From NCBI GenBank assembly GCA_012962735.1, contig DTXA01000509.1:1-36671 (forward strand): a DNA stretch of 36,671 nucleotides, written 5' to 3'. The stretch comes from Candidatus Latescibacterota bacterium (GTDB lineage Bacteria > Latescibacterota > 4484-107 > B68-G9). The notes under the pieces are model-generated. The model saw nothing but the letters and a program-made list of their open reading frames with translations. It was not told the DNA's origin and ran no database searches. Positions 3,721-16,588 of the stretch are shown here, one piece after another; position 1 is the first letter of the stretch, and every line of letters starts with the position of its first letter. Both the position numbers and the translations under genes were made by a program.

Positions 3721-3750
3721 AAGGGGCAGTGCGAGGATGCACTGCCCCTT
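3721..3750. terminator. bidirectional intrinsic-terminator-like hairpin between convergent clpB and the lipoprotein gene
   Basis: Perfect 12-bp stem AAGGGGCAGTGC (3721-3732) / GCACTGCCCCTT (3739-3750) with a 6-nt loop. It is flanked by AAAGAT on one side, which gives AUCUUU on the minus-strand transcript. Confidence 0.6.
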
Positions 3751-3763
3751 AATTACACGACCT

Positions 3764-4174
3764 TCAAGGCCCTCCGATTACTTCGTACTCTATGGCCCCT
3801 GCGCTTCCGAACCCGATCGATTTTATCCACACGGTCATATTCCCGTTCACGGTCAGTTCGACTTCCACGGATGGCTGTATCCTTCCCGTGGGGTCTCCTC
3901 CGTACCCCACGGCCTTCTGGGAGGTGAGGGTGACGGTCACCTTGGTCCCCGCCTTGAGCACCTCCTGCGACACATCTTTGACCTCGCCCGGCTCCACCAC
4001 GGATTCGACCTCCCTCAGGTCCTCGGTCACGCATCTCACGTTGAAGGCCACATCCGTGCTGTTTCGCACGTATATCCTCCCATCCTCCGCAATCCGAGGC
4101 CCGGCACCGCCCCCTCCGCAGGCGAGGAACCATAGGAACGCACACAGAAACCCGAGTGAACGCAACTTAAACAT
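3764..4174 (-). CDS. small putative lipoprotein, unknown function
   Basis: 136-aa ORF. N-terminus MFKLRSLGFLCAFLWFLAC-GGGG is a signal peptide with a lipobox-like FLAC followed by a Gly-rich linker. GGGAGGTGA SD is present. It is the last gene of the ten-gene operon. Confidence 0.6.
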   Translation of the reverse strand: MFKLRSLGFLCAFLWFLACGGGGAGPRIAEDGRIYVRNSTDVAFNVRCVTEDLREVESVVEPGEVKDVSQEVLKAGTKVTVTLTSQKAVGYGGDPTGRIQPSVEVELTVNGNMTVWIKSIGFGSAGAIEYEVIGGP

Positions 4175-4213
4175 ATTACATCACCTCCCTGTGGCTACGT
4201 CCGGGAGAACACT

Positions 4214-6127
4214 TCACTCATTGTACGTGTGCCCCAGGGCCCTCTCCTTCTCAAAGGCCCCCTGAAGCCTCCTGTAGTTCCTCCTGAGCCTCTGTAGCTC
4301 TTTGAGCTTCACATCCGGGTCCTCTAACGCCTGGTAAAGGACCCCTCCCTCCGCATCTCTGGGGACAGGGAGCTCTGCCAGGTAGCATATCGTGGGCACG
4401 ATGTCCTCCAGCCTCACCGTCCTCTCCAACACCACACCTTTCTTCACCCCCGGCCCCGCCATCACGAAGAGCCCCCTGAGGTCCCCCAACCCGAACCTGG
4501 CAGCGGGCAGGTGCGGTCCGTGCTGCCCGCCGAAATCTGAGGTTATGGCGTACACCACGTCTCCCACTCTATCCCCGTATAACCCTATGATCCTAGCATC
4601 CTCCCGCTTGAGGGCGAGAGCTATGGGCTTCTTGCCGGTCTCGGTGTCTGTGTAATCGTACAGGGCCTTTATCACCGCCTCCCGCACCTCCTCGTATTCC
4701 TCCGGCTCAACTATCCCCTGCGGGTCCCTACCCTTCAGATTCACGTAGATGTAGCAGGAGCGCTGCTGCACCGCCTTGGTGCGGGACCAGTCCACAACCC
4801 GTTCCCCGTCCTCGGCTTCCCTGTAAGCCAAAAGCCCAGCCGCCTCCAGAACATCCGCCACACGGAACGTATAGGTAGTGGCCTTGGCCCCGTGGTCAGA
4901 GACCAGGATCACCAGGACGTCCTCCCCGCCAGCCTCCAGAATCCGGCCTATCATCCGATCAAGGCTCCTGTAGAAGCCCAACTCCACCTCCTGATAGAAC
5001 CTGGCCTCCTCTTCGCTTCCAGCTGTGAGGGGGTCCATCTTGGTGGCGAAGGCGTGGTAAGCGTGGTCCGGGCAGTGGGCGTGCATGAAGAATAGGTCCC
5101 AATCCTTGTGCCCGAGGAGGTACACAGCCGCATCCGCAAGCCAGACGTGAGCGAGGTCCACGATCTCCAAAAACGTCCCAGCATCGACCCACTCCAAGTT
5201 CAGCGCCTGGAAGCCTCCGTGGGGCATGGGTAGCCCGCCCTCGGACCTTATCTCCCCGGCCACCTCCTCGGGATAGGACCAACCGTCTAAGGCGCAGAGA
5301 GGGGAGACATAGAGACGAAGCGAGGACCCGTCCGGGGATAGCTCCAGCAGCTTACACCTGAAGACCGCCTCCTTCCTCCCCTCGGACGTCTCGAAGACCT
5401 GAACGATGTTCGGTGTCCACTCCCCAGGCCCGAGCCGGGCGAACGCCTTCCCGGCGTCCCTCCCCTCGCAGAGCAAGACCCTCCCGAAACCGTCCCCCTC
5501 GTCCAGGGCGAGAAGGTGCCATGTTCGGGGCTCTACCTCGTATCTGGCCATCCGATACATCAGCGACAGCTCCGACTCCAGCGCCCTCCGACATGGGGGC
5601 ATGTTCCTCCACCCCTGAGCGGACCTGAATTCTATCGTCGTGGCTAAGGGGTACTCATCGGTCGCAAACAACTGCTCCGCGGCCAAAGTGCACCTGAAGG
5701 GAGAAGGCTCCCTGTACCTCCACTCGTTGATGCTCAGTCCCGCCCCCCCGATCTGCACCCCTTCCCTGATCGTGGGCGGCCAGGTGGAGGGGTAGTTGAG
5801 GATTATGCTTCTCCTTCCAGCACGCTCGGCCGCCTGCCAGATATACTCGGCCCTGCAATCCGTCGTATCGAACCCTTGGTGCGTCAGGTCTAAGGGGTCC
5901 CCGGGGTTGTGCACATTAAAGCAGGTGATCCCGTGGGTCCCGAGCGAGGCCCCGGTCACTATGGTGGTCCAGTTCGGGGGCGTTATGGTCGGGAACGGCA
6001 CCAGGCAGTGCTCTGCGTATACCCCGTTCTCTATCAGCCTGGCTATGGCCGGCAGATGCCCCTCCCTGGCGTATCGGTATAGCCTGGGAGCTATAGGGGC
6101 GTCCAGTCCTATCACCATCACCTTCAT
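4214..6127 (-). CDS. alkaline-phosphatase-superfamily protein (type I phosphodiesterase/nucleotide pyrophosphatase-like)
   Basis: 637-aa ORF with AGGAGG SD. Motifs: VIGLDA (metal Asp), FPTITPPNWTTIVTG (NPP-type nucleophile Thr region), LVSDHG (metal His). Confidence 0.75.
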   Translation of the reverse strand: MKVMVIGLDAPIAPRLYRYAREGHLPAIARLIENGVYAEHCLVPFPTITPPNWTTIVTGASLGTHGITCFNVHNPGDPLDLTHQGFDTTDCRAEYIWQAAERAGRRSIILNYPSTWPPTIREGVQIGGAGLSINEWRYREPSPFRCTLAAEQLFATDEYPLATTIEFRSAQGWRNMPPCRRALESELSLMYRMARYEVEPRTWHLLALDEGDGFGRVLLCEGRDAGKAFARLGPGEWTPNIVQVFETSEGRKEAVFRCKLLELSPDGSSLRLYVSPLCALDGWSYPEEVAGEIRSEGGLPMPHGGFQALNLEWVDAGTFLEIVDLAHVWLADAAVYLLGHKDWDLFFMHAHCPDHAYHAFATKMDPLTAGSEEEARFYQEVELGFYRSLDRMIGRILEAGGEDVLVILVSDHGAKATTYTFRVADVLEAAGLLAYREAEDGERVVDWSRTKAVQQRSCYIYVNLKGRDPQGIVEPEEYEEVREAVIKALYDYTDTETGKKPIALALKREDARIIGLYGDRVGDVVYAITSDFGGQHGPHLPAARFGLGDLRGLFVMAGPGVKKGVVLERTVRLEDIVPTICYLAELPVPRDAEGGVLYQALEDPDVKLKELQRLRRNYRRLQGAFEKERALGHTYNE

Positions 6128-6142
6128 CGTCCGCCTCCTGGC

Positions 6143-6961
6143 TTAGAAAAATCGTTTAAGGTAATGTAGGCTCCTTTGTGCTATCGTCTCCGGTCCCGGG
6201 GAGAAATCGAACACCTCCACAGAAACGTACCCCTCGTACCCGACCTCCCGCAGGGTATCTGCTATCGGCCCGAAGTCCACCTTCCCCATTCCAGGTCCGA
6301 GGCAGTTTGCGTCGTTTGCGTGGACGTGTCTGAGGTGGGGGGCGACACTCCGGATAACCTCTGGCACTTCCTCCTTCTCCCCGAACCAGGCGCTGCGCAC
6401 GTCCACCATGATCTGGAGGTTGGGATGGGCTATATCCTGCACCAGCCGCATCGCCTCCTCCGTATCGGTCAGGAAATTGGTCTGATGCGGGTCCAGGGCC
6501 TCCAAGCACAGCGTAACCCTCAGGGCTTCGGCCTCTGGGAGGACCGCCTGGAGCACCTCCAACGTGCGCCTGTACGTGTCCCTGTAGGTTTGTCCCTCCA
6601 AGATGTTCCTCTGCTTGGGGGAGCCCACCACCATAACCCTCCCACCTAAGTCCCCGCAGAACTCTACCAGACGCAAGAGGTAATCCTGAGTGCGCAGGCG
6701 TATCGAATCGTCCGGATGGTTTATGTAAAGCCCTTCGGGCTTCACGAACAGCCAATGCAGACCCACGACCTCCACACCTGCCTCCTCCGCCGCCCTCCTC
6801 ATCTTCCACCTCTGGCTTTGAGTTATATCCTCCACCGAACCCGCCAGGGTGAACGGAGCTATCTCCACCCCATCGTACCCGAGCTCCGCAGCGTACCGGA
6901 ACACCCGCTCTATCTCCCACCCCTGGAACATCTCGTTGCATATCCCGAGTTTGATCGCCAT
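6143..6961 (-). CDS. sugar phosphate isomerase/epimerase (xylose-isomerase-like TIM barrel)
   Basis: ORF 6143..7057 trimmed to ATG 6961 (GGGGGGAG SD). The longer version would overlap the 3' end of the upstream gene. Motifs ELGYDGVEIAPF, LCLEAL, HLRHVHANDAN and YVSVEVFD are typical of the AP-endonuclease-2/xylose-isomerase-like fold. Confidence 0.75.
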   Translation of the reverse strand: MAIKLGICNEMFQGWEIERVFRYAAELGYDGVEIAPFTLAGSVEDITQSQRWKMRRAAEEAGVEVVGLHWLFVKPEGLYINHPDDSIRLRTQDYLLRLVEFCGDLGGRVMVVGSPKQRNILEGQTYRDTYRRTLEVLQAVLPEAEALRVTLCLEALDPHQTNFLTDTEEAMRLVQDIAHPNLQIMVDVRSAWFGEKEEVPEVIRSVAPHLRHVHANDANCLGPGMGKVDFGPIADTLREVGYEGYVSVEVFDFSPGPETIAQRSLHYLKRFF

Positions 6962-6972
6962 CTCCCCCCCTT

Positions 6973-9915
6973 TCAAAGTCCACCTAAGGCATCGATTCGG
7001 CGCTGCACTGCCCGCCTCAGCGGCCCCTCCACCCTGCGGGAGGCCAGGCGGTAGCACTGAAGTGCCTGGGAGAGGTCCCCCTGCCTTTCGTGCACCAGCC
7101 CCAGATAGTACAACACCGCCGGGGACTCCGGCTTGAGTGCCCTGGCCCGCTCTAAGGTTTCACGGGCCTTCCCGTACCGCCCCTCCGTATAATATAGGCT
7201 CCCTAAGTTGAAGTAAACTTCGAACTTACCCGGGTCCACCTCCAGCGCCCTCCGATAGGCCTCCTCCGCCTCCTTCCTCTTCCCCATCCGGGCGTACACA
7301 TTCCCCAAGTTCACCCATACCCGCACGTCCTTCGGATTAACCTCCAAGGACCTACGGTACGCCCGGACCGCTTCCCTGTATCGGCCCGCCCGTTCGTATA
7401 CCAACCCCACCCTCGCATAGGTATACGGCGATGTGTACGCGCCTTCACCCAGCTCGGCCATAAAACTCCTGGAATCCTTGTCCTCCGGCCAGAGCTCTAA
7501 AGCCCTCCTGTACGCCTCCACTGCCTCCTCGGGCATCCCCCCTCTACGGAAGATATTCCCCCGTATGCGCCAGGCCAAAGCCTCCAATGCCGCTCTGAGC
7601 TTGACCTCTTCCCCCGAGGACATCCCCACCACATAGGGCAGGGGCGACCCCCTGGCCTGGGCCACCGCGAACAGATTTGGCAGGCCCGCCCCCACCCCCC
7701 GCTGTCGGGGCTCCGAGAAGCTTATGTAGGGATGGTCGTCCGAGTTGATGGGCCCCTCTCCCACGAACGCCCTCACCTCCCTCTCACCCATCACCAGAGA
7801 GCTTACCAGCGCTACCGGGTCCTCGAGGTTCACCGAACTCAAGTCCTCCCGCACCACAGGTTCCTCCATACGGGCCTTCAACCTCACGAAGTCCACCCTC
7901 AAGGGGTCTGTCGTCCCCATCATCAAGGTATACTCGTTAAAGAGCCACAGGCTCGTGTGTGGAAAGACCGAGAGGAAAGTGCGCAGGAGAATCCGGTAGT
8001 CGAACTCCGAGAGCCCGTGCAAGGGGAGCCACTGGACCATAATCCCCCCCTCCTTCAGGCGCTCCAGGCAAAGCTCGTAGAACTCCCTTGTGTAAAGCAC
8101 CCAACTGTCGCTCGAGCCCGGGTGCGTGGCGTCTCCCGTTATCACATCGTACCTCCTCCCGCTCCGCAGCAGATAGTTCCTACCGTCGTCTACGATCAGC
8201 CTCACCGGGGCCTCACCCCGAGCCATCCGACCCAGAATCCCCTGGTTATACTCCGAGAACAAGTTCGCTGCCTCCACCACTCCCGGGACGATCTCCACGC
8301 ACTCGATCAGCTCCGCCTCGTACAGGGCCGCCGATCCCAAAGCGATCCCCCCTCCGAAGGCGATCACGAGGACTTCCCTGGGGTCCGGGTGCAGCAGGAG
8401 GGGAAGGTGCCCCAGCATCTTAAAGGTCTGGAGGGAGGCCAGGTCGGTGGGCACCTCTCCACCGCCGTTCACCTTCATCAACATCCTTCCGTCCGGGAAC
8501 TTATGCACTGTCACGGTCCCGGCCGCCTCGTCCCTCCAGAAGACCAGCTCGCTCCCCGGTTCCGACCTTTCGTACAGCCTCCTGATTGCATCCTCGTATG
8601 GACCCAGGATTCCTACTGAGGCCACAGCCACGACCCCCCCCACCAGTCCCCAACGCACCGGTGCCCTTATGTGGCTCCAGGCTAAAAGGCTCGCCCCCAA
8701 ACCCAAATTCCCCAAGGCCAGGGCCCGAACTGTCCCCCCAGCCCCCAAGAGGGGCATCAGCACAAACCCGGTCCCCGCTGCCCCCAACACCGCCCCCACG
8801 GTGTTGGCCGCATACGCGGTCCCCACCCCGCGACCCACCCCTCCTAAGCGCAGGGTGCAGATCCTCGCAACAACCGGCAGAACCCCTCCCAAAAGGAACG
8901 TCGGAAACAGCATTAAAGCGAAGGTGGCTAAGAATCGCCCCCCCGAGTACTCCCACCAAGACCCCCCCCCGACGGCCTGGACCACCTCCGGGAGCACACC
9001 GAACAGGAAGACCGAGCACAGCCCGAACGCGCCCACCCCCACCTCTAAGGCCCCGAAGGCCGCTACCGGGTCCCGCCACCTGTCCGCCCACCTCCCGAAG
9101 GCGGCTCCCCCCAAGGCCAGCCCCACCAGAAAGGCCGAAAGCATCGTCCCGAAGGCATAGGCCGTGTTGCTCTTCAGGGAGATCCCCAAAAGCCTCGTCC
9201 ACACCACCTCGTAGCCTAGGGCCGCGAACCCCGAAACCCCGAAGGCCACCAATACGGGGAAGACCTGAGAGGATATACCCCGCACGGGCTCCGGCCTCCA
9301 GGCCGGCACCTCCTCCATCTCAACGCTCAAAGCGAACGCAGCTCCACCCACCAACAGATTCACCGAGGCAGCTATGTACAGGGTCTCCCATACCCCCAGG
9401 TTCCCCATCGCGAAGAAGGTCGCAGCGAAACATCCTGCCACCGCTCCGGCGGTGTTCAAAGCATAAAGCCTCCCCACCCCCCATCCCACCTCCCCCCTGC
9501 TCCGTACCAGAAACTGGCTCACCGCCGGCAGCGTCCCCCCCATCAGCACAGTGGGGAAGGCTAAAAGCCCTAAACAGAGCCCGAACCGGGTGGCCAGGCT
9601 TCCCCCCCAGGCCGAATACACCTGCTCCACCAACCCCAAAAGGACCGGGAAGGCCAAGGCGAACGCGCCCACCCCCAACTCCAAGTACGCATACAGCCGT
9701 AGAGGGTTCCGATGTCGGTCCGCGAGCCTCCCGAAGAGGTAGCTCCCCAAGGCCATCCCACCCATAAAGGCCGAGAGCACAGTGCTGGCCGCCCACACCG
9801 TGGCCCCGAAGGCCACCACCAACATCCTCGTCCACACCACCTGGTACGCCAGCCCGCACGCCCCGGAGAGGAAGAAAAGCCCCGGCACCGACCACCTTAC
9901 TGTCTGCTCCCTCAT
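6973..9915 (-). CDS. fused polytopic membrane / spermidine-synthase-like / TPR-repeat protein
   Basis: ORF 6973..10050 trimmed to ATG 9915, which forms an ATGA overlap with the DUF362 stop. The N-terminal half is a run of hydrophobic helices. The middle has a spermidine-synthase-like Rossmann region (VLVIAFGGGIALGSA, IVDDGRNYL, DVITGDATHP, LYTREFYELCLERLKEGG). The C-terminal part carries TPR units (AVEAYRRALELWPED, AVRAYRRSLEVNPKD, AEEAYRRALEVDPGK, ...). Confidence 0.75.
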   Translation of the reverse strand: MREQTVRWSVPGLFFLSGACGLAYQVVWTRMLVVAFGATVWAASTVLSAFMGGMALGSYLFGRLADRHRNPLRLYAYLELGVGAFALAFPVLLGLVEQVYSAWGGSLATRFGLCLGLLAFPTVLMGGTLPAVSQFLVRSRGEVGWGVGRLYALNTAGAVAGCFAATFFAMGNLGVWETLYIAASVNLLVGGAAFALSVEMEEVPAWRPEPVRGISSQVFPVLVAFGVSGFAALGYEVVWTRLLGISLKSNTAYAFGTMLSAFLVGLALGGAAFGRWADRWRDPVAAFGALEVGVGAFGLCSVFLFGVLPEVVQAVGGGSWWEYSGGRFLATFALMLFPTFLLGGVLPVVARICTLRLGGVGRGVGTAYAANTVGAVLGAAGTGFVLMPLLGAGGTVRALALGNLGLGASLLAWSHIRAPVRWGLVGGVVAVASVGILGPYEDAIRRLYERSEPGSELVFWRDEAAGTVTVHKFPDGRMLMKVNGGGEVPTDLASLQTFKMLGHLPLLLHPDPREVLVIAFGGGIALGSAALYEAELIECVEIVPGVVEAANLFSEYNQGILGRMARGEAPVRLIVDDGRNYLLRSGRRYDVITGDATHPGSSDSWVLYTREFYELCLERLKEGGIMVQWLPLHGLSEFDYRILLRTFLSVFPHTSLWLFNEYTLMMGTTDPLRVDFVRLKARMEEPVVREDLSSVNLEDPVALVSSLVMGEREVRAFVGEGPINSDDHPYISFSEPRQRGVGAGLPNLFAVAQARGSPLPYVVGMSSGEEVKLRAALEALAWRIRGNIFRRGGMPEEAVEAYRRALELWPEDKDSRSFMAELGEGAYTSPYTYARVGLVYERAGRYREAVRAYRRSLEVNPKDVRVWVNLGNVYARMGKRKEAEEAYRRALEVDPGKFEVYFNLGSLYYTEGRYGKARETLERARALKPESPAVLYYLGLVHERQGDLSQALQCYRLASRRVEGPLRRAVQRRIDALGGL

Positions 9916-10898
9916 ACGGGCCCCATCGTGGTTATGACCTCGAAGCGCCCCTCGAGCCTTAGCTTCCGAAGGTCCCGGCAGGGCCGCAGCTCCCCCTCCT
10001 CCAGGGAGAACACCCGCAGCCTCTCCACCCGGACCTCCCCCAGCCCCCACTCCAAGGCGGCCCTAAGGTAAACGATATCCTCCGGAGCGAAGCCCATCAG
10101 GAAGCTGGCCACAGCATCCACTGCGACGGGATTCCTCCCGGCTATTGCCAGCCCGGCCGGGATGTTCCGCCCCCTGTGGAAGCCGGTCCCGTCCCGCCCC
10201 ACCACCCCCTCCACTACGTTAAGGGAGGGACGCACGACGGAGTTCAGGTCGCAAAGCCGCTCCGCCAGTCCCCACTGCCAGGCTATATGCTCCTGGGGGG
10301 TAAGCGACTCCCTGTCCCAGGCGGTCCGTGGCCATGACTGGCCGCAGAAGTTCCTCTCATGCGGCGCTACTGTACCCATCAAGTTCTTCATCGAAAGCGT
10401 CGTGATCGCAAGGTTGTGCGTCTTCATCTTGGGCACGTTGGCCAGGAACGTCCCTGGTCCGACAACTGTGCTGGCGATACCGATCTCCCGGAAGACCCGG
10501 CCTCCGGGCACCGGGAGCGTGACCATCCGGTCGCCCCGCAAGTTCACGAGCTGCACCCCCCAACGTCCAGCCAACTCCCGGTATCCCGACTCCTCCCAGG
10601 CCTGTTCGGGGTCACCTCCAGGGCCCTCGGCGATCGTCACGTCCTCGGGGGACACACCTACTTCCGAGAGGTAAGCCAGCATCCCCTCCACGAACCGATA
10701 GTGCGTCACGATCCCGGAGTCCGGCTCCGCGGGTACGGTCACGTTGGGCTTGAACACCATCTTCCTTCCCCCCGGGTGCACCCCCATCGCCTTCAGTAGG
10801 CGGTACCCCGCCTCCCAGAAGTCCTGCTCCTTTATTCGCCCGTCCAGGCCTACCCGGTACACGCACACCACATCCTCCGCCAGATAGGGTGTCCCCAT
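9912..10898 (-). CDS. DUF362 domain-containing protein
   Basis: ORF 9912..10901 (GTG start); I prefer ATG 10898 because GGAGG lies 5 nt upstream. Its start overlaps the upstream stop by 1 nt (TGATG). Motifs match my memory of DUF362: VFKPNVTVP, VTHYRFVEG, NVPKMKTHNLAITTLSMKNLMG. Confidence 0.7.
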   Translation of the reverse strand: MGTPYLAEDVVCVYRVGLDGRIKEQDFWEAGYRLLKAMGVHPGGRKMVFKPNVTVPAEPDSGIVTHYRFVEGMLAYLSEVGVSPEDVTIAEGPGGDPEQAWEESGYRELAGRWGVQLVNLRGDRMVTLPVPGGRVFREIGIASTVVGPGTFLANVPKMKTHNLAITTLSMKNLMGTVAPHERNFCGQSWPRTAWDRESLTPQEHIAWQWGLAERLCDLNSVVRPSLNVVEGVVGRDGTGFHRGRNIPAGLAIAGRNPVAVDAVASFLMGFAPEDIVYLRAALEWGLGEVRVERLRVFSLEEGELRPCRDLRKLRLEGRFEVITTMGPV

Positions 10899-12199
10899 CA
10901 CGTCCTCCCCGGATATTCCACTAACCCAGAAGTCCCCTGAAAGATGATCCCCTCGTGTCCCATATCCTCAGCGGACTCGACCGCATCCCGGATCACCGCC
11001 GGGGGCCAGAGCCTTCCTTTGACCACGGGGTATGAGACCCCGGAAATGAACGCCCGGGCCTTGTACAACTCCCGTACAAGGATGTCCTTGAGGGGCAAAC
11101 ACCTGTACTCCCCATCCGGCCCTCCCACCCCCAGGTCCTCTATCGCCTCAGGCAGGCCCGCCATGTCCCCATACCCGAACAGGCAGTACACCGATCTCAA
11201 TGCCTCCCTCTCCCCCAGCCCCGGGACCCAGGAGCACAAAAGGCCCGCATACGCCGCCCACGTCGAACTTATGAACACCTCCACGTGGGGAAGCAGGGGG
11301 CTGACGAAGTCCAGGCTCTCCCCCAGATCTCGGTATAGGTGGCCCACCAAGGGGGCGAAGGACGGCGGAAACGCATCCCCTCCGAAGAGCACCTTCCCCC
11401 CCGTAGCCCTGTGCACCGCATCCCGGAAGCGCCGCAGGTTCCGGGAGATCACCTCGGCCCGGAATCGGAACCAGTTCAAAACCCCCTCCTCCAGCACCTG
11501 CACCAGGTCCGTCCATCCCATCCCGGTCCGGGCCATATGTCGGACGGAACCGGCGTCCAGCCGCCTCAGTCCGTCTAAAAGCTGGGTCATCCCCCTCCGC
11601 ATCCCCTCGAAGTCGTACCCCATCTCCTCGGCCGCCTCCCGACACTTCGGGCATGCGCACCCGAAAAGCCCGTAGAAGAAAGCGGGAGCGGTGTACCGGT
11701 AGTGCGTCACGTCGATCCCCTCCACATCGTAACTCCGGGCCATATCCGAGAACGCGGCCTCGAACCATTCGTTCAGCTCCGGGTGGTTGGGACAGAACGT
11801 CAGCCAGTACTGCTCCACCGCATACGGGACCTCGGGCGTCTCGGAGACGGGCCTCCCCGAGAAATCCACCGAGACCATATCCGGGAATCGTTCCGCTCCG
11901 ATGTACTGCCATCCAGCACCCAAGAGCCAGACCCGGATCCCCCTTCTGTGCGCCTCTCGGATCGCCAGACGGAGAAGCGAATCGTCGTTCCCGTACTGCA
12001 CCCCCGGGGGCTCACCTCCGCCCCGCCTGGCCACGGGGTCCAGGGCCCGGACCTCCGGAGATAGGTTGTACCTCCCCCCCTTCAGGCCGGAGCCCAAGAT
12101 CACCAGGTTCAATCCTATCTCCCGCTGCAGCGCCTCTATGTACCTGGGGTCCCGGGCTACGACCTCGCTGTCGGTATACAACCCCACTAACTTACCCAT
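10898..12199 (-). CDS. hypothetical protein, possibly a glycoside-hydrolase-like (GHL) TIM barrel
   Basis: ORF 10898..12430 trimmed to ATG 12199 (MGKLVGLYTD...), which overlaps the aminotransferase stop by 1 nt (TGATG). The untrimmed 77 codons lie inside the upstream gene. Segments RGIRVWLLGAGW and VEGIDVTHYRYTAPAFFYGLFGCACPKCREAAEEMGYDF resemble GHL6/GHL10-type hypothetical glycosidases. The family call is tentative. Confidence 0.45.
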   Translation of the reverse strand: MGKLVGLYTDSEVVARDPRYIEALQREIGLNLVILGSGLKGGRYNLSPEVRALDPVARRGGGEPPGVQYGNDDSLLRLAIREAHRRGIRVWLLGAGWQYIGAERFPDMVSVDFSGRPVSETPEVPYAVEQYWLTFCPNHPELNEWFEAAFSDMARSYDVEGIDVTHYRYTAPAFFYGLFGCACPKCREAAEEMGYDFEGMRRGMTQLLDGLRRLDAGSVRHMARTGMGWTDLVQVLEEGVLNWFRFRAEVISRNLRRFRDAVHRATGGKVLFGGDAFPPSFAPLVGHLYRDLGESLDFVSPLLPHVEVFISSTWAAYAGLLCSWVPGLGEREALRSVYCLFGYGDMAGLPEAIEDLGVGGPDGEYRCLPLKDILVRELYKARAFISGVSYPVVKGRLWPPAVIRDAVESAEDMGHEGIIFQGTSGLVEYPGRT

Positions 12200-13416
12200 C
12201 ACAAGGCTCCTTCCTCTGCGAATACCCTGGTCGCGGCCGCGACCCCGGCCCCAGCCGGCACATTCACCCCCATCTCCTTCAAGGTCTGCTCTAAAGCGTA
12301 GATCGTGGGCAACACGTACTGGGGTCTGGCCACGAACCCCATAGTCCCGATCCTGTCCCCCCCAATGGCCACCCCGTACTTCTCCTGCATCAACTTCCCT
12401 AACTTCCCTACATCCAAGCCCTTGGGCCACACTACCTTAGTGCAAGATGGGGCGGCGATCTCCTCCCTCTTGGCCTTCACCCCGAGGCCCAACGCCCGCA
12501 CCGCCTCCCGGACCGCCTTAGATGCCACCTTATGCCTCCAGAAGACCCTCTCCGGTCCCTCATCGAAGACCTCGTCCAAGGCGGCTTTCAGTCCCTTTAT
12601 AAGCACGTAGGAGGGAGAAGGCCCATGCGCAGCCTTGCGCGCGGCCGCCACCGCCACATCCTGGACACCTCCCTCCCCCCGGGCGACCGCGTATGCCCTG
12701 CGCACTCCTTGATGGTACGCCCGCCACACTGTCAGGTCCATACAGAGGGAGCGGATCGGGGTCCTCCGCTCCTCCATCCGTCTCCACGCCCGTTCGCTCA
12801 CGGCCACTATGGCCGTCCCCTGGGGGGCGTTCAGGCTCTTCTGAGGACTGGTGCAGCAAAGGTCTATCCCCCAGTCGTCCACCCTCACCTCCATACATGC
12901 GAACGAACTCACCGCATCCACCATGTAGAGCACTCCCGGGAACTTCCGCACCACATCCCCTATCTCGTCCACCGGGTTCACCGTGCCCATGCTCGTCTCC
13001 ACATGCACCACCGCCACCATCTTCGCCTCGGGATGTTCCTCCAAAGCCTCTCGTATCATCTCCAGGGTCACAACGTCCCCGTCCTCCACCCTCACCGGCA
13101 CGGGTTCCGCCCCTATAACCGATGCGATGTCGTACAGAACCTGGCCGAAGATGCCGGATATGGCCGTGATGACCGTATCCCCCTCCTCCAAGGTGCTAAC
13201 CATAGCCGCCTCTTCTCCATACGTGGCACAGCCGTCCATAAGGATGACATCGTCTTTGGTATGTAACAATCGCTGGATCATCTCTACGGCCGCGACTTCT
13301 ATCTCCCAGTAGGGGGGGTAGTAGATGGGCGTGCCCAACTGTTTCCCCATCTCTTCCAATGCCTTAGGATATATATCCGTCTGGCCGCAGCTCATGTTGA
13401 TACGGGCCTGTCGCAT
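12199..13416 (-). CDS. class V pyridoxal-phosphate aminotransferase (alanine-glyoxylate / serine-pyruvate / AEP-transaminase family)
   Basis: ORF 12199..13419 (GTG); ATG 13416 has GGAGG 7 nt upstream. Motifs: VVHVETSMGTVNP, MVDAVSSF, and TSPQKSLNAPQG (PLP-binding Lys). Confidence 0.8.
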   Translation of the reverse strand: MRQARINMSCGQTDIYPKALEEMGKQLGTPIYYPPYWEIEVAAVEMIQRLLHTKDDVILMDGCATYGEEAAMVSTLEEGDTVITAISGIFGQVLYDIASVIGAEPVPVRVEDGDVVTLEMIREALEEHPEAKMVAVVHVETSMGTVNPVDEIGDVVRKFPGVLYMVDAVSSFACMEVRVDDWGIDLCCTSPQKSLNAPQGTAIVAVSERAWRRMEERRTPIRSLCMDLTVWRAYHQGVRRAYAVARGEGGVQDVAVAAARKAAHGPSPSYVLIKGLKAALDEVFDEGPERVFWRHKVASKAVREAVRALGLGVKAKREEIAAPSCTKVVWPKGLDVGKLGKLMQEKYGVAIGGDRIGTMGFVARPQYVLPTIYALEQTLKEMGVNVPAGAGVAAATRVFAEEGAL

Positions 13417-13446
13417 CACCTCACCTCCGTTTATCTTTATAGGGGC

Positions 13447-14301
13447 TTAGCCCTTGAGGGCCCCAACCGTGATCCCCTTGGTTATGCGCTCCTGCAAGAT
13501 GGCGTACCCGATTATCGTGGGCAACATCACTATCACCAGCCCAGCGAACAGCGAACCCCAGTCGGTCTTGTAGTGCTCCACCATCATCAGGTTCGCTATC
13601 CCCAGTGGCAAAGTCCTCAGGGCCGAAGACGATATCACCACAAGCGCTAGCACGTACTCGTTCCATATCGCTATGAAAGTGAATATCGCCACAGCTATGA
13701 GCCCCGGCTTGGCCAAAGGCAACATTATCCTCCAGAAAACTCCGAAGGGGGAACAACCATCTATGAGCCCGGCTTCCTCAAGTTCCTTGGGGATGGTCTT
13801 GAAGAAGGCGGTCAGCACGAAGACCGTAAACGGTATACCAGAGGCTATGTACACCGATATCAGCCCCGTATGGGTGTCCAAAAGCCCCAGGTCTTTCAGG
13901 AGGAAGAACATAGGCACTAACGCAAGGAATATCGGGAACATAAGCCCAGCCAAGAAGAAATAGTACAACAGTGAATTACCCCTGAACCTGTACCTGGCCA
14001 ACGCATAGCTCGCCATAGCGCCTATTATAAGCTGGATGGCCACCGTTGTCACGGTGACGAACACACTGTTGAAGAAAAAGCTCCCTATCTGAGCGTCCCT
14101 CCATGCGTTGATGTAGTTCTCAAAATGGAACTTCCTGGGAAGCGCCCATGCGTTGGCGAAGAGCTCCCTGCTCGACTTGAAGGAAGTATATGCCAGCCAC
14201 ACCATAGGGTATATCACCACGACGCTGTACGCGACGAAGATGACCTGCATAACCAACTTCCTGAGCAGTGCCCTCCAGTCCCGTCCTCTCACTTCCGGCA
14301 T
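13447..14301 (-). CDS. carbohydrate ABC transporter permease (MalG-like, CUT1)
   Basis: 284-aa polytopic ORF. EAA loop EEAGLIDGCSPFGVFWRIMLPLAKPG. GAGGGAGG SD. 10 nt after the upstream permease stop. Confidence 0.9.
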   Translation of the reverse strand: MPEVRGRDWRALLRKLVMQVIFVAYSVVVIYPMVWLAYTSFKSSRELFANAWALPRKFHFENYINAWRDAQIGSFFFNSVFVTVTTVAIQLIIGAMASYALARYRFRGNSLLYYFFLAGLMFPIFLALVPMFFLLKDLGLLDTHTGLISVYIASGIPFTVFVLTAFFKTIPKELEEAGLIDGCSPFGVFWRIMLPLAKPGLIAVAIFTFIAIWNEYVLALVVISSSALRTLPLGIANLMMVEHYKTDWGSLFAGLVIVMLPTIIGYAILQERITKGITVGALKG

Positions 14302-14311
14302 AGCCCCTCCC

Positions 14312-15190
14312 TCAGTACTGCACCGTCTCCCTCTTCTGAAGCCTTATGGACAACAGCGCAAGCACGAACGTTATCAGGAAAAGCGCAATGGCTATGGCTG
14401 TGGCATAGCCGAACTTTCCGAACTTGAATGCATTGTCGTAGAGGTACGTCGCCATGGTCTCCGTGCTCCGGTTCGGCCCACCGTCGGTCATTATCTTCAC
14501 AACCGCGAACGTCCCGAACCCGTTCAGGAGGAGGAACACAACCGTAACTTTCATAATCTCGCTCAAAAGTGGAAGCGTAACGTGCCAGAAAGCCTTCCAT
14601 TCGCTCGCACCGTCTATCTTCGCCGCATCATACAGGTCTGTGGGTATTCCCTCCAAGGCCGAAAGGTACAATATCATATAGAACCCCACGGCAGCCCAGA
14701 CCTTCACCGCCACTATGCACCAGGGAGCCGTCTTCACGCTCCCCAACCAGGCCGGCAGGCTCTTCATCCCCAAAATCCTCAGGAAATTGGTTAATATCCC
14801 GAAGTCCGGATTCAGCACGAAGGACCAAAGCACCGCAATGGCCACAACCGATATGAGATTGGGGAAGAAATACATGATCCTGAAGAACCTCGCCCCCCAA
14901 ACCAACCTCCGGGACATCACCACCGCGAAGAACAAAGCTATGACAGGTACGATCGTCCCGTTCGTCACTGTGAAGAACGAAGTGTTCTTCAGAGCGTTCC
15001 AGAAGTAGGGGTCGTGTAGCATAGTCCAGAAGTTCTCAAGCCCTATGAAAGACATCTGCGTGGAAACCCCACGCCAGTCGGTCAACCCGATGTAGAACGC
15101 CCTGATGTATGGGTACACCATAAATACCCCGTACATGATGAACGCGGGCATGATAAAAAGTGCTATCACCTTCCTCTGTCCCTTCCTCAT
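14312..15190 (-). CDS. carbohydrate ABC transporter permease (MalF-like, CUT1)
   Basis: 292-aa polytopic ORF. EAA loop YDAAKIDGASEWKAFWHVTLPLL. GGGAGGGA SD. Confidence 0.9.
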   Translation of the reverse strand: MRKGQRKVIALFIMPAFIMYGVFMVYPYIRAFYIGLTDWRGVSTQMSFIGLENFWTMLHDPYFWNALKNTSFFTVTNGTIVPVIALFFAVVMSRRLVWGARFFRIMYFFPNLISVVAIAVLWSFVLNPDFGILTNFLRILGMKSLPAWLGSVKTAPWCIVAVKVWAAVGFYMILYLSALEGIPTDLYDAAKIDGASEWKAFWHVTLPLLSEIMKVTVVFLLLNGFGTFAVVKIMTDGGPNRSTETMATYLYDNAFKFGKFGYATAIAIALFLITFVLALLSIRLQKRETVQY

Positions 15191-15235
15191 AATTCATCCC
15201 TCCCGCTCGGCCAGGTCCTTTCTATACCGAACTTC

Positions 15236-16588
15236 CTAACGAGAAGCCAATAGCTTAGGCGGTTCTCTGTGGTACTTACGGATGGTGGGATCCTTCCTTA
15301 TACGCTCTGCGATCCGCTCTATCCTATGGGCGAACTCCTCCGGGGGAATCCCCTCGTAAAGAAGCGCTGCTAAGGCGTTCTCGGCCCCATCCTCCATCTC
15401 CTCGTACCAGTCCGTGAACCTCATATAGAAAGTCTCGCCCTTTGCCGCCTTTACGGCATCTATAGCGCTTTGCAAGGCCTCTGGGATCTTTATTCCCTCT
15501 GTGGCCCCCTCGATCGGCATGAGGTCCCTGACCTTTCTGACGAAGTTCTGTGCCATCTTCTTGGAGAGTAGTATCCTCAAATACTCCATACCCAATTCTT
15601 TGTGCTTAGCCTGGGCCGGCACCCAGAGAGCTGCCCCGGCCGAGGCTTCTATAGCCTCCGCGCTCCCCTTCCCGCCCGGCACCGCCGGAAGGGGCATTAT
15701 CCTCATCCTGAACCCAGAGGGTATGGCCTCCTTCATCTCGTTCTCAAGCCACGTCCCGCAGGGGACCATCGCCGCCTTCCCCTGAAGCCATACCATCTGC
15801 GCTTCCGTATGGGTGAGGGCCGAGGACCCCTCCAAAACGTACCCCCTGTCTATCAGCTCCCTGCACATCCGCGCCGCCCTTACCACCTCAGGCCTCTCCC
15901 AGGCCCCCGGCACCAAGTTGTCCAAGTCTATCAGAAGTTCGTACCCTCCGATCTTGTACAACAGCGCGCGGAAGATGATGCTGTAGTACGAGGGATACCT
16001 TCCCTGGTGCACCAGGGGGGCTATGCCCATGGCCTCGATCTCCTCGCAAAGCTCGAGGAACTCATCCCATGTCTTGGGGGGCTTCCATCCGTACTTCTCG
16101 AACATATTCACATTATACCAAAGCCCCAGAACTGCGAAAGTGATCGGCAGGAAATACTGGTGTCCCTCGTACCTCCCCCGGTCCAGGGCCCCCGGCAGGA
16201 ACGTATCCTTGAACTTTATATGCTCCTGCCCGTACGCCGGCGCCTCCATAAGGGAGTCAAGGGGGGCCACCAGCCCTTCCTGTAGGTTCACCCATATATT
16301 TATGTTGTGTATCCCCCAGAAGACATCGGGGGGGTTGCCGGCCAAAAACCTCGTCCTGGTCTGGTCCCACACCCTCGGGTTCCCCCAGATGTAAGCTTTG
16401 TACCCCGGGTGTACCTTCTCGAACTCCCTTCCGGCGTCGTACAGCCACTCCATCCCGTACCCGCCCTGGAAGAAAGCGCCCTCCATCATCCGCTCGCCGA
16501 ACTCCCTTGTGCCCCCCCGTCCCTTGTACACGATGGAAAGCAGATACAAAGCTGCCAATAAGGCCAACCCTACCTTCTCCCTCAACAT
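15236..16588 (-). CDS. ABC transporter extracellular solute-binding protein (sugar family 1)
   Basis: 450-aa ORF with an N-terminal hydrophobic anchor (GLALLAALYLLSIV). Typical SBP_bac_1 features (FLAGNPPDVFW, WYNVNMFEKYGWKPPKTWDEFLELCE). GGAGG SD. First gene of the operon. Confidence 0.85.
   Translation of the reverse strand: MLREKVGLALLAALYLLSIVYKGRGGTREFGERMMEGAFFQGGYGMEWLYDAGREFEKVHPGYKAYIWGNPRVWDQTRTRFLAGNPPDVFWGIHNINIWVNLQEGLVAPLDSLMEAPAYGQEHIKFKDTFLPGALDRGRYEGHQYFLPITFAVLGLWYNVNMFEKYGWKPPKTWDEFLELCEEIEAMGIAPLVHQGRYPSYYSIIFRALLYKIGGYELLIDLDNLVPGAWERPEVVRAARMCRELIDRGYVLEGSSALTHTEAQMVWLQGKAAMVPCGTWLENEMKEAIPSGFRMRIMPLPAVPGGKGSAEAIEASAGAALWVPAQAKHKELGMEYLRILLSKKMAQNFVRKVRDLMPIEGATEGIKIPEALQSAIDAVKAAKGETFYMRFTDWYEEMEDGAENALAALLYEGIPPEEFAHRIERIAERIRKDPTIRKYHREPPKLLASR

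Follow-up and report, generated by a model that had tools for sequence, protein, structure and literature searches.

A modular sugar-importer gene cluster in Candidatus Latescibacterota: a candidate carbohydrate-utilisation array carrying uncharacterised enzyme families

Do ten adjacent genes headed by a sugar importer encode one pathway? The question is raised by contig DTXA01000509.1 of a Candidatus Latescibacterota bacterium (assembly GCA_012962735.1; its 36,671 nt are referred to as the window), where ten genes encode the solute-binding protein (SBP) and two permeases of an ABC importer, a class V aminotransferase, a glycoside hydrolase-like (GHL-like) TIM-barrel protein, a DUF362 protein, a membrane fusion protein, a xylose-isomerase-like (XI-like) protein, an alkaline-phosphatase-superfamily (AP-family) enzyme and a small lipoprotein (Table 1). 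A sequence-only reading had tentatively taken them for a single uptake-and-conversion route for an amino- or phospho-substituted glycan. Its domain assignments were all reproduced with Pfam and NCBIfam. The ten-gene single pathway did not hold up: a sister lineage runs the locus without two of the genes and with a different last one. We prefer to view the cluster as a lineage-specific, modular carbohydrate-utilisation array rather than a conserved ten-gene pathway. We put the probability of this reading as a whole at about 0.5, and any particular chemical step within it deserves much less confidence.

A seven-gene core, a two-gene indel and a lineage-specific end

The sister lineage is represented by loci L107 (a 58-kb contig), L108 (GCA_012961755.1) and L109, with proteins 77-94% identical to those of the window. 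Gene order is colinear through GAPDH, PGK, a 1090-aa TPR protein, ExbB, ExbD, a DUF4159 protein, the SBP, the two permeases, the aminotransferase, the fusion protein, the XI-like protein and the AP-family enzyme, and the GHL-like and DUF362 genes are absent from all three loci. The comparison divides the ten genes into three parts: a seven-gene core common to both lineages (SBP, two permeases, aminotransferase, fusion, XI-like and AP-family genes), an indel of two genes and 2.3 kb (9912-12199), and a last gene restricted to its lineage. The indel fills precisely the interval from the stop of the aminotransferase gene to the start of the fusion gene. In the sister, these two genes overlap at a GTGA, made up of the GTG start of the fusion gene and the aminotransferase stop; an identical GTGA is present in the window where the aminotransferase gene meets the GHL gene. 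Within the core, identity to L107 is 89% for the SBP, 88% for the aminotransferase and 78% for the fusion protein (a colinear orthologue of 979 aa), while the XI-like and AP-family proteins are 81% and 85% identical, respectively, in both L107 and a further locus, L027.

DNA similarity between the two lineages stops at the stop codon of the AP-family gene. What follows in the window is the lipoprotein gene and clpB; in the sister it is an unrelated 266-aa gene and a convergent gene for pyruvate kinase. The gene that replaces the lipoprotein gene in the sister (L107 18666-19466; L027 3040-3858) has a conserved product of 266-272 aa, for which neither Pfam nor NCBIfam gave a match. Because synteny ends right after the AP-family gene, we consider the lipoprotein gene to be lineage-specific. 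The lipoprotein itself has no Pfam or NCBIfam match, and its relatives were found only in clusters at ≥90% identity, with none outside its own lineage, in keeping with this assignment.

The sequence-only reading had named independent shuffling of the genes as evidence against itself, and this is largely what we observe: beyond the sister lineage, the members of the cluster recur separately. The wider neighbourhoods share a theme of carbohydrate processing, with no fixed partnership between the families.

Table 1. Genes of the cluster and the hairpins at its edges
Feature	Positions	Strand	Assignment and remarks
CUT1 solute-binding protein (SBP), NgcE-like, 450 aa	15236..16588	-	SBP_bac_1 (PF01547) 96.5 bits
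ABC permease 1, 292 aa	14312..15190	-	BPD_transp_1 (PF00528); UgpA/MalF-like; 88% identical in L107
ABC permease 2, 284 aa	13447..14301	-	BPD_transp_1 (PF00528); GlcU/MalG-like; 92% identical in L107
Class V (AGXT-family) aminotransferase, 405 aa	12199..13416	-	Aminotran_5; pyridoxal phosphate-lysine motif SPQKSLNAPQG
GHL-like: glycoside hydrolase-like TIM-barrel protein with Cys4 site, 433 aa	10898..12199	-	First gene of the two-gene indel
DUF362 protein, LarA-like fold (modelled), 328 aa	9912..10898	-	PF04015 135.1 bits; second gene of the indel
Membrane protein, 980 aa: duplicated MFS-like region, spermidine-synthase-like domain, C-terminal TPRs	6973..9915	-	Spermine_synth and TPR families
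Xylose-isomerase-like (XI-like) TIM barrel, ketose or keto-acid epimerase-like, 272 aa	6143..6961	-	AP_endonuc_2 143.8 bits
AP-family: alkaline-phosphatase-superfamily (NPP-type) enzyme with large insert, 637 aa	4214..6127	-	Phosphodiest 120.3 bits, in two stretches
Predicted lipoprotein (MFKLRSLGFLCAFLWFLAC...), 136 aa	3764..4174	-	Signal peptide and lipobox-like FLAC, read from the sequence
18-bp perfect stem-loop	16609..16647	-	Terminator-like site; 20 nt upstream of the SBP start; 5' edge
Terminator-like hairpin	3723..3748	-	Between the lipoprotein gene and convergent clpB; 3' edge; fold z = -5.8

Transcription unit and genomic setting

The ten minus-strand open reading frames lie where the sequence-only reading had placed them, and its overlaps and short spacers were likewise confirmed. 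From 5' to 3', the junctions measure 45, 10, 30, -1, -1, -4, 11, 15 and 39 nt, the overlaps being TGATG at 12199 and at 10898, and ATGA at 9912-9915. Each start has a purine-rich ribosome-binding site ahead of it or overlaps the preceding stop. The genes are thus co-directional, with gaps of -4 to 45 nt and no strong internal terminator (terminator-like sites within the cluster are short and at chance level, with 10 found vs. 10.9 expected), and the cluster is operon-like, as proposed. The additional claim that it contains no promoter-like element was literally incorrect, since three sigma-70-like matches occur on the coding strand, including one of 11/12 at 14052-14024. Their number is nonetheless at or below chance (4.7 +/- 2.2 expected).

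The 5' limit of the cluster is set only by a 91-nt gap that holds the 18-bp hairpin, in a region that folds with z = -4.6. The hairpin leaves no room for a promoter ahead of the SBP gene. Because no promoter was found in the 91-nt gap, the transcription unit may extend further upstream, with transcription either starting at the SBP gene or reading through from the TPR-ExbBD-DUF4159 genes. The sister lineage keeps the hairpin (L107, about 8577-8615); the sites of three transitions still pair there, but only as G-U and on the sense strand, and for this reason an RNA-level element (a partial terminator or 5' stabiliser) is favoured over a protein operator. In function it would be a terminator, an attenuator or a 5' stabilising hairpin. 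The possibility that the palindrome is a repeated operator was rejected, as it occurs once in the window and the sister substitutions are better explained by RNA pairing than by a symmetric site in DNA. No riboswitch or other known RNA was matched in Rfam within the window. The hairpin at the 3' edge has a 13-bp stem, the inner 10 bp of which are all G-C or A-U (GGGGCAGUGC/GCACUGCCCC), followed by UUAUCUUU.

Proteins with ≥90% identity to those of the window are named Candidatus Latescibacterota in NCBI metagenome-assembled genomes, which shows a Latescibacterota origin. Between 3764 and 34513 there are 24 genes, all on the minus strand and spaced by 7-136 nt, apart from a single gap of 299 nt; those outside the cluster are housekeeping genes (GAPDH, PGK, PFK, RNase G, 2-oxoacid:ferredoxin oxidoreductase, Lgt and ExbB/ExbD). 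GC skew is strongly negative throughout this co-directional array, in which genes for glycolysis, RNA processing and ExbBD/TPR proteins are mixed with the ten-gene cluster. The overlaps linking the aminotransferase, GHL-like, DUF362 and fusion genes are the sole feature that distinguishes the cluster from its surroundings. G+C content at third codon positions is uniform (0.74-0.82) across all genes. A dip in G+C content over the permease genes is thus an effect of amino-acid composition and not foreign DNA, and recent horizontal transfer of the enzyme block, an idea prompted by the dip, was rejected.

The same strain is present in five other assemblies at 99.95-99.97% identity. In each of these the fusion gene is split between two contigs, the left one ending within 8945-9141 and the right one beginning within 8923-8929, the ends overlapping by 23-34 nt. 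A chimeric assembly of the window at this point was rejected because the contig ends overlap, the reading frame is continuous and the L107 orthologue is colinear. K-mers shared with the sister lineage were also ruled out as the cause of the breaks (8923-9141). In the fusion gene, the membrane half is an ancient internal duplication whose repeats have diverged and lie about 570-750 nt apart.

The importer and the enzymes behind it

A family-1 SBP and two BPD_transp_1 permeases (69.1 and 81.4 bits on PF00528) are encoded together, as in CUT1 importers. The sequence-only reading was right that no ATPase gene accompanies them; indeed, no ABC_tran gene lies anywhere in the 36.7-kb window. CUT1 importers such as NgcEFG ordinarily lack an ATPase gene of their own, being served by a shared ATPase of the MsiK type. 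On the NgcE model (TIGR03851, chitin_NgcE), its best by a wide margin (next, 164.5 bits), the SBP reaches 380.6 bits, and its best PDB match is 9h0n (E = 8e-40), a Bifidobacterium protein that binds fucosylated Gal-beta-1,3-GlcNAc (lacto-N-biose) blocks. Judging from these matches, the ligand is probably an oligosaccharide containing N-acetylglucosamine (GlcNAc). The carbohydrate or amino-sugar theme of the sequence-only reading is thus upheld by the NgcE score and the 9h0n ligand, together with the fold matches of the GHL-like protein and the presence of GHL and AP-family homologues beside sugar transporters and genes of carbohydrate-active enzyme (CAZyme) type.

Two known systems provide points of comparison. 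The GlcNAc/chitobiose importer NgcEFG of Streptomyces olivaceoviridis, also of the CUT1 type, has the same make-up of one SBP and two permeases without a clustered ATPase gene, MsiK being encoded elsewhere. In contrast, the window SBP scores below the NgcE equivalog cut-off (399.65 bits), the genes that follow are not of the NagA/NagB/NagK type and the ligand is a predicted one. The E. coli ycjM-V operon likewise has a sugar ABC importer co-transcribed with an XI-like TIM-barrel epimerase, YcjR; the window cluster, however, has no ycj-type dehydrogenase (ycjM-V has those of the Gfo/Idh/MocA type), phosphorylase or mutase, nor an ATPase gene. YcjR (6wn6) is a detectable relative of the window XI-like protein (E = 4e-10), although the latter is closer to TM_0416/IolO.

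Locus L020, from the same strain, continues past clpB, beyond position 1 of the window. At 8694-11840 it carries a Gfo/Idh/MocA oxidoreductase gene and a gene for a 698-aa protein of GH35/GH42 type whose second domain is GlmA (exo-beta-glucosaminidase-like), both about 5 kb beyond the 3' end of the cluster. These two genes lend support to the guess that the substrate contains GlcNAc.

The GHL-like protein falls short of all Pfam cut-offs, including the gathering scores of the families it resembles (24.2 vs. 35 bits for GHL6; 16.4 vs. 27.9 bits for GHL10), and a search of its sequence against the PDB gave no significant match. Its AlphaFold2 model is nonetheless a TIM barrel (pLDDT 86, pTM 0.90), with PgaB-C (GH153), Cwp19 (GHL10) and a GH156 sialidase as the top Foldseek matches (TM about 0.5), and as modelled the fold is that of a glycoside hydrolase-like barrel. 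PgaB-C and Cwp19, its best structural matches (E about 2e-9), are hydrolases of GlcNAc-containing polymers; they are only about 10% identical to the window protein, which differs in being cytoplasmic, in having a Cys4 site and in having no evident conserved carboxylate pair. The CxCxxC motif noted previously corresponds to C181-x-C183-x-x-C186, which together with C136 is invariant in the close family. About 70 of 99 members of the family have all four cysteines, which appear or vanish jointly. The Cys4 pattern, a putative metal site, presumably resembles the zinc site of GH42. The best conserved residues are H166, R168, W243 and R247, which are better kept than any acidic residue.

The GHL-like family is rare: its homologues amounted to nine clusters in a word-index search of 5.8 billion proteins, five loci in 185,579 species genomes and, by hidden Markov model, 788 representative clusters, 117 of them at E <= 1e-30; none was found in the plasmid collection. 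Most members of the family have no Pfam match, and one distant member bridges to GHL10, DUF4015, GHL6, GH42 and GHL13. A relationship to the nearby GH35/42 GlmA-like protein was rejected (hhalign probability 0.2%). Neighbours of the family vary: two CUT1 permeases and a PHP protein on TARA contigs (in the order permease-permease-GHL), a sodium:solute symporter, a BNR sialidase-like protein with an amidohydrolase, or a CBM9-like protein with UxuA. Locus L001 (2-6638) has the order DUF362-PNPOx-unknown-MBL-GHL-GH2/42-like-MFS, the three genes between DUF362 and GHL encoding a PNPOx-like flavoprotein, a 569-aa unknown protein and a metallo-beta-lactamase-fold (MBL) protein. As L001 pairs GHL and DUF362 in a different arrangement, and its DUF362 protein is the closest relative of that of the window (54% identity over the 106 C-terminal residues present on the contig), the two families co-occur twice independently. 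A 436-aa gene without a Pfam match that follows DUF362 in L012 was considered as a GHL homologue and rejected, as it encodes a HEAT-repeat protein.

The DUF362 protein belongs securely to its family (135.1 bits vs. a PF04015 gathering score of 24), and its sequence has no significant match in the PDB. The AlphaFold2 model (pLDDT 91.6) has a LarA-like fold: its 16 best Foldseek matches are all of the LarA family, i.e. nickel-pincer-nucleotide racemases and apo or uncharacterised homologues (E = 7e-6 to 8e-3). DUF362 and LarA are placed in one Pfam clan (PMC11770544), and DUF362-CBM9 fusions have been reported from lignocellulose enrichments (PMC5742341). There are also differences from the LarA superfamily. 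The fold matches have TM scores of just 0.4-0.47 at 10-15% identity, LarA proteins have about 420 aa vs. 328 aa here, and no larBCE genes lie in the window. The subfamily shows no variation at K157, K159, H161, K171 and H66. The neighbourhoods of other DUF362 homologues (41-51% identity) share nothing with the window.

The aminotransferase belongs to the AGXT family by its PDB matches (2z9u, E = 2e-47). Its best NCBIfam match is pyridoxamine-pyruvate transaminase (NF046070), where its 240.4 bits miss the cut-off of 600 bits, and it lies far below every equivalog cut-off tested in NCBIfam, including those for PhnW (109.9, 95.9 and 93.9 bits, with cut-offs of 360.8, 400.8 and 296 bits). The amino-sugar role suggested for it is not supported by these matches, which are to enzymes of the small-amine or amino-acid type. 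The XI-like protein has TM_0416 as its best PDB match and is nearest to TM_0416/IolO and ketose 3-epimerases; it scores 118.7 bits on the model for IolO, a 5-keto-L-gluconate epimerase (NF041099), short of the 300-bit cut-off.

The AP-family enzyme matches Phosphodiest and has a threonine nucleophile motif (PTITPPNW) and six metal ligands, as in the nucleotide pyrophosphatase/phosphodiesterase (NPP) branch of the superfamily, which includes the phosphonoacetate hydrolase PhnA. Residues D9, T47/T49, N52, D354, H358, D411, H412 and H536 are invariant in 17 sequences, and we take these to correspond to the known NPP sites. Its NPP-type active site is predicted to be complete. The window protein differs from the NPP branch by an insert of about 200 aa, PDB relatives match only about its first 115 residues, and it scores 29.2 bits, over the N-terminal region only, against the PhnA cut-off of 407.55. 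No characterised member of this COG3379-like family was found, and the literature on COG3379 offered nothing useful.

For the AP-family enzyme, over 1200 homologues were found at identities of 50-85%, in Bathyarchaeota, Thermoprotei, Chloroflexi and Armatimonadota. Relatives at 74-77% identity have unrelated neighbours, e.g. sulfatases, DUF6785 and AXE1. None of 80 metagenome loci with AP-family homologues contains a homologue of the aminotransferase, the GHL-like protein or the DUF362 protein. The commonest neighbours in these loci are XI-like TIM barrels (about 10, in two clusters of 5 each), CUT1 transporters (9) and Gfo/Idh/MocA proteins (7), followed by sulfatases, URO-D-like proteins and AXE1-type esterases (6 each). 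In L025 and L026 (from the set of AP loci L025-L106), the AP-family gene lies beside genes for DUF6785 membrane proteins and sulfatases. Matches in the plasmid collection reach just 25% identity, in an unrelated cluster of Mesorhizobium. That cluster, L110 (M. huakuii pMHb 427651-433996), combines a full-length homologue with genes for a transketolase, a radical SAM protein and an aminotransferase of the DegT type, which suggests a biosynthetic use for this remote branch of the family.

The fusion protein passes the model for fused MFS/spermidine synthases (NF037959; 112.9 bits vs. a cut-off of 40) and scores 51 bits on PF01564. To our knowledge, the family has no known function, and its literature yielded nothing useful. 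Spermidine synthase motifs are not preserved in alignment to Thermotoga maritima SpeE (FGGGIA vs. GGGDGG; DATHP vs. DSTDP), and the window protein differs from the NF037959 family by extra C-terminal TPRs and by the absence of the GGGDG aspartate that selects decarboxylated S-adenosylmethionine. No signal peptide was seen at the N-terminus of any enzyme of the cluster. No enzyme reaches the curated equivalog cut-off for a named function, and the combination does not correspond to a known pathway; the sequence-only reading had not recognised one either.

Competing readings of the locus and their significance

How might a modular array of this kind operate? The importer would take up a GlcNAc-containing oligosaccharide with the help of a shared ATPase encoded elsewhere. 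Where present, the cytoplasmic glycoside hydrolase-like enzyme would cleave or otherwise process the imported sugar, and the two epimerase-type proteins (DUF362 and XI-like), the phosphoesterase and the aminotransferase would convert the products, with the GHL-like and DUF362 proteins serving as an optional add-on. All ten genes would be carried on one transcript, starting perhaps upstream of the SBP gene and ending at the hairpin before clpB.

Several observations weigh against the modular array. Conservation of the core says little about functional coupling because it is seen only where the flanking housekeeping genes are syntenic too; once AP-family identity falls to 77% or below, none of the neighbours is shared. 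The SBP falls short of equivalog status as NgcE, the aminotransferase, from its sequence, is not of a type known to act on amino sugars and the GHL family, having no evident conserved catalytic carboxylate pair, may be something other than a hydrolase. Nor does the reading explain the fusion protein, the DUF362 protein and the lipoprotein. Lastly, no promoter was identified between the DUF4159 and SBP genes.

The original proposal, in which all ten products serve one dedicated route for an amino- or phospho-substituted glycan, has in its favour the translational coupling from the aminotransferase to the fusion gene, an amino-sugar-type SBP, an apparently complete phosphoesterase active site and a gene set that known pathways do not explain. 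It nevertheless appears distinctly unlikely, given a sister lineage that dispenses with GHL and DUF362 and ends on another gene, the lack of aminotransferase, GHL or DUF362 homologues in the 80 AP loci, and DUF362 contexts elsewhere that have nothing in common with the window. A converse view is that the genes share a transcript but not a function: the importer would take up a sugar, envelope or polyamine-type functions would fall to the fusion protein, to the lipoprotein and possibly to the aminotransferase, and their adjacency would reflect a compact, co-directional genome. The mixture of glycolysis, RNase G, ExbBD and cluster genes in the 24-gene array fits this well, as do the missing promoter ahead of the SBP gene, a fusion family without a known carbohydrate link and neighbourhoods that are not conserved at a distance. 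However, the GHL, AP and XI-like families recur elsewhere with sugar transporters and CAZyme-type genes, and the aminotransferase stop overlaps the start of the next gene in both lineages. We consider functional independence of the genes rather unlikely.

Two further schemes give the locus a different chemistry. One makes it a system for biosynthesis or envelope modification: a surface glycan or lipid would receive an aminoalkyl or methyl group through the fusion protein, with precursors supplied by the neighbouring enzymes. The place of the fusion protein in the conserved core, its translational coupling to the aminotransferase in the sister, its TPRs, the lipoprotein neighbour and the company kept by the Mesorhizobium AP homologue are compatible with such a role. 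This scheme is very unlikely, however, since an import-type, binding-protein-dependent ABC system heads the cluster, the spermidine-synthase-like domain lacks the GGGDG aspartate and the cluster has no glycosyltransferase or nucleotide-sugar genes. A 2-aminoethylphosphonate-type route, with the aminotransferase acting like PhnW and the AP-family enzyme like PhnA on phosphonate-decorated glycans, can be given almost no credence. The matches that suggest it (94-110 bits on the PhnW models and 29 bits on PhnA) are weak and far below the cut-offs, AGXT and pyridoxamine-pyruvate models give the aminotransferase much higher scores, PhnA is 230 aa shorter than the AP family, and there is no PhnY, PhnX or phosphonate-transporter signature.

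Within the modular array, the indel invites a more specific proposal, which we regard as speculative and improbable in its full form: GHL-like and DUF362 would be a portable two-enzyme module that plugs into a conserved importer operon to widen its substrate range, made up of a Cys4 glycoside hydrolase-like founder of a new family and a LarA-fold, pincer-cofactor epimerase of sugars or sugar acids. The conserved His and Arg residues of the GHL family would suit an anionic sugar. If true, such a module would carry nickel-pincer chemistry beyond 2-hydroxy acids into glycan catabolism.

The arrangement is one of a sugar-importer-linked utilisation operon carrying uncharacterised families; it introduces no new principle and would not greatly surprise a specialist. 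It does, however, offer a natural experiment, in that co-occurring Latescibacterota lineages differ by a clean two-gene indel in an otherwise identical sugar-importer operon, and comparing the two could assign a function to an unannotated glycoside hydrolase-like family and to a DUF362 subfamily. The locus also draws attention to a very conserved, uncharacterised AP-superfamily enzyme of Bacteria and Archaea that recurs in glycan-degradation loci of sediment microbes. Globally, the locus is of value for discovering enzymes in a phylum that is uncultured and degrades polysaccharides.

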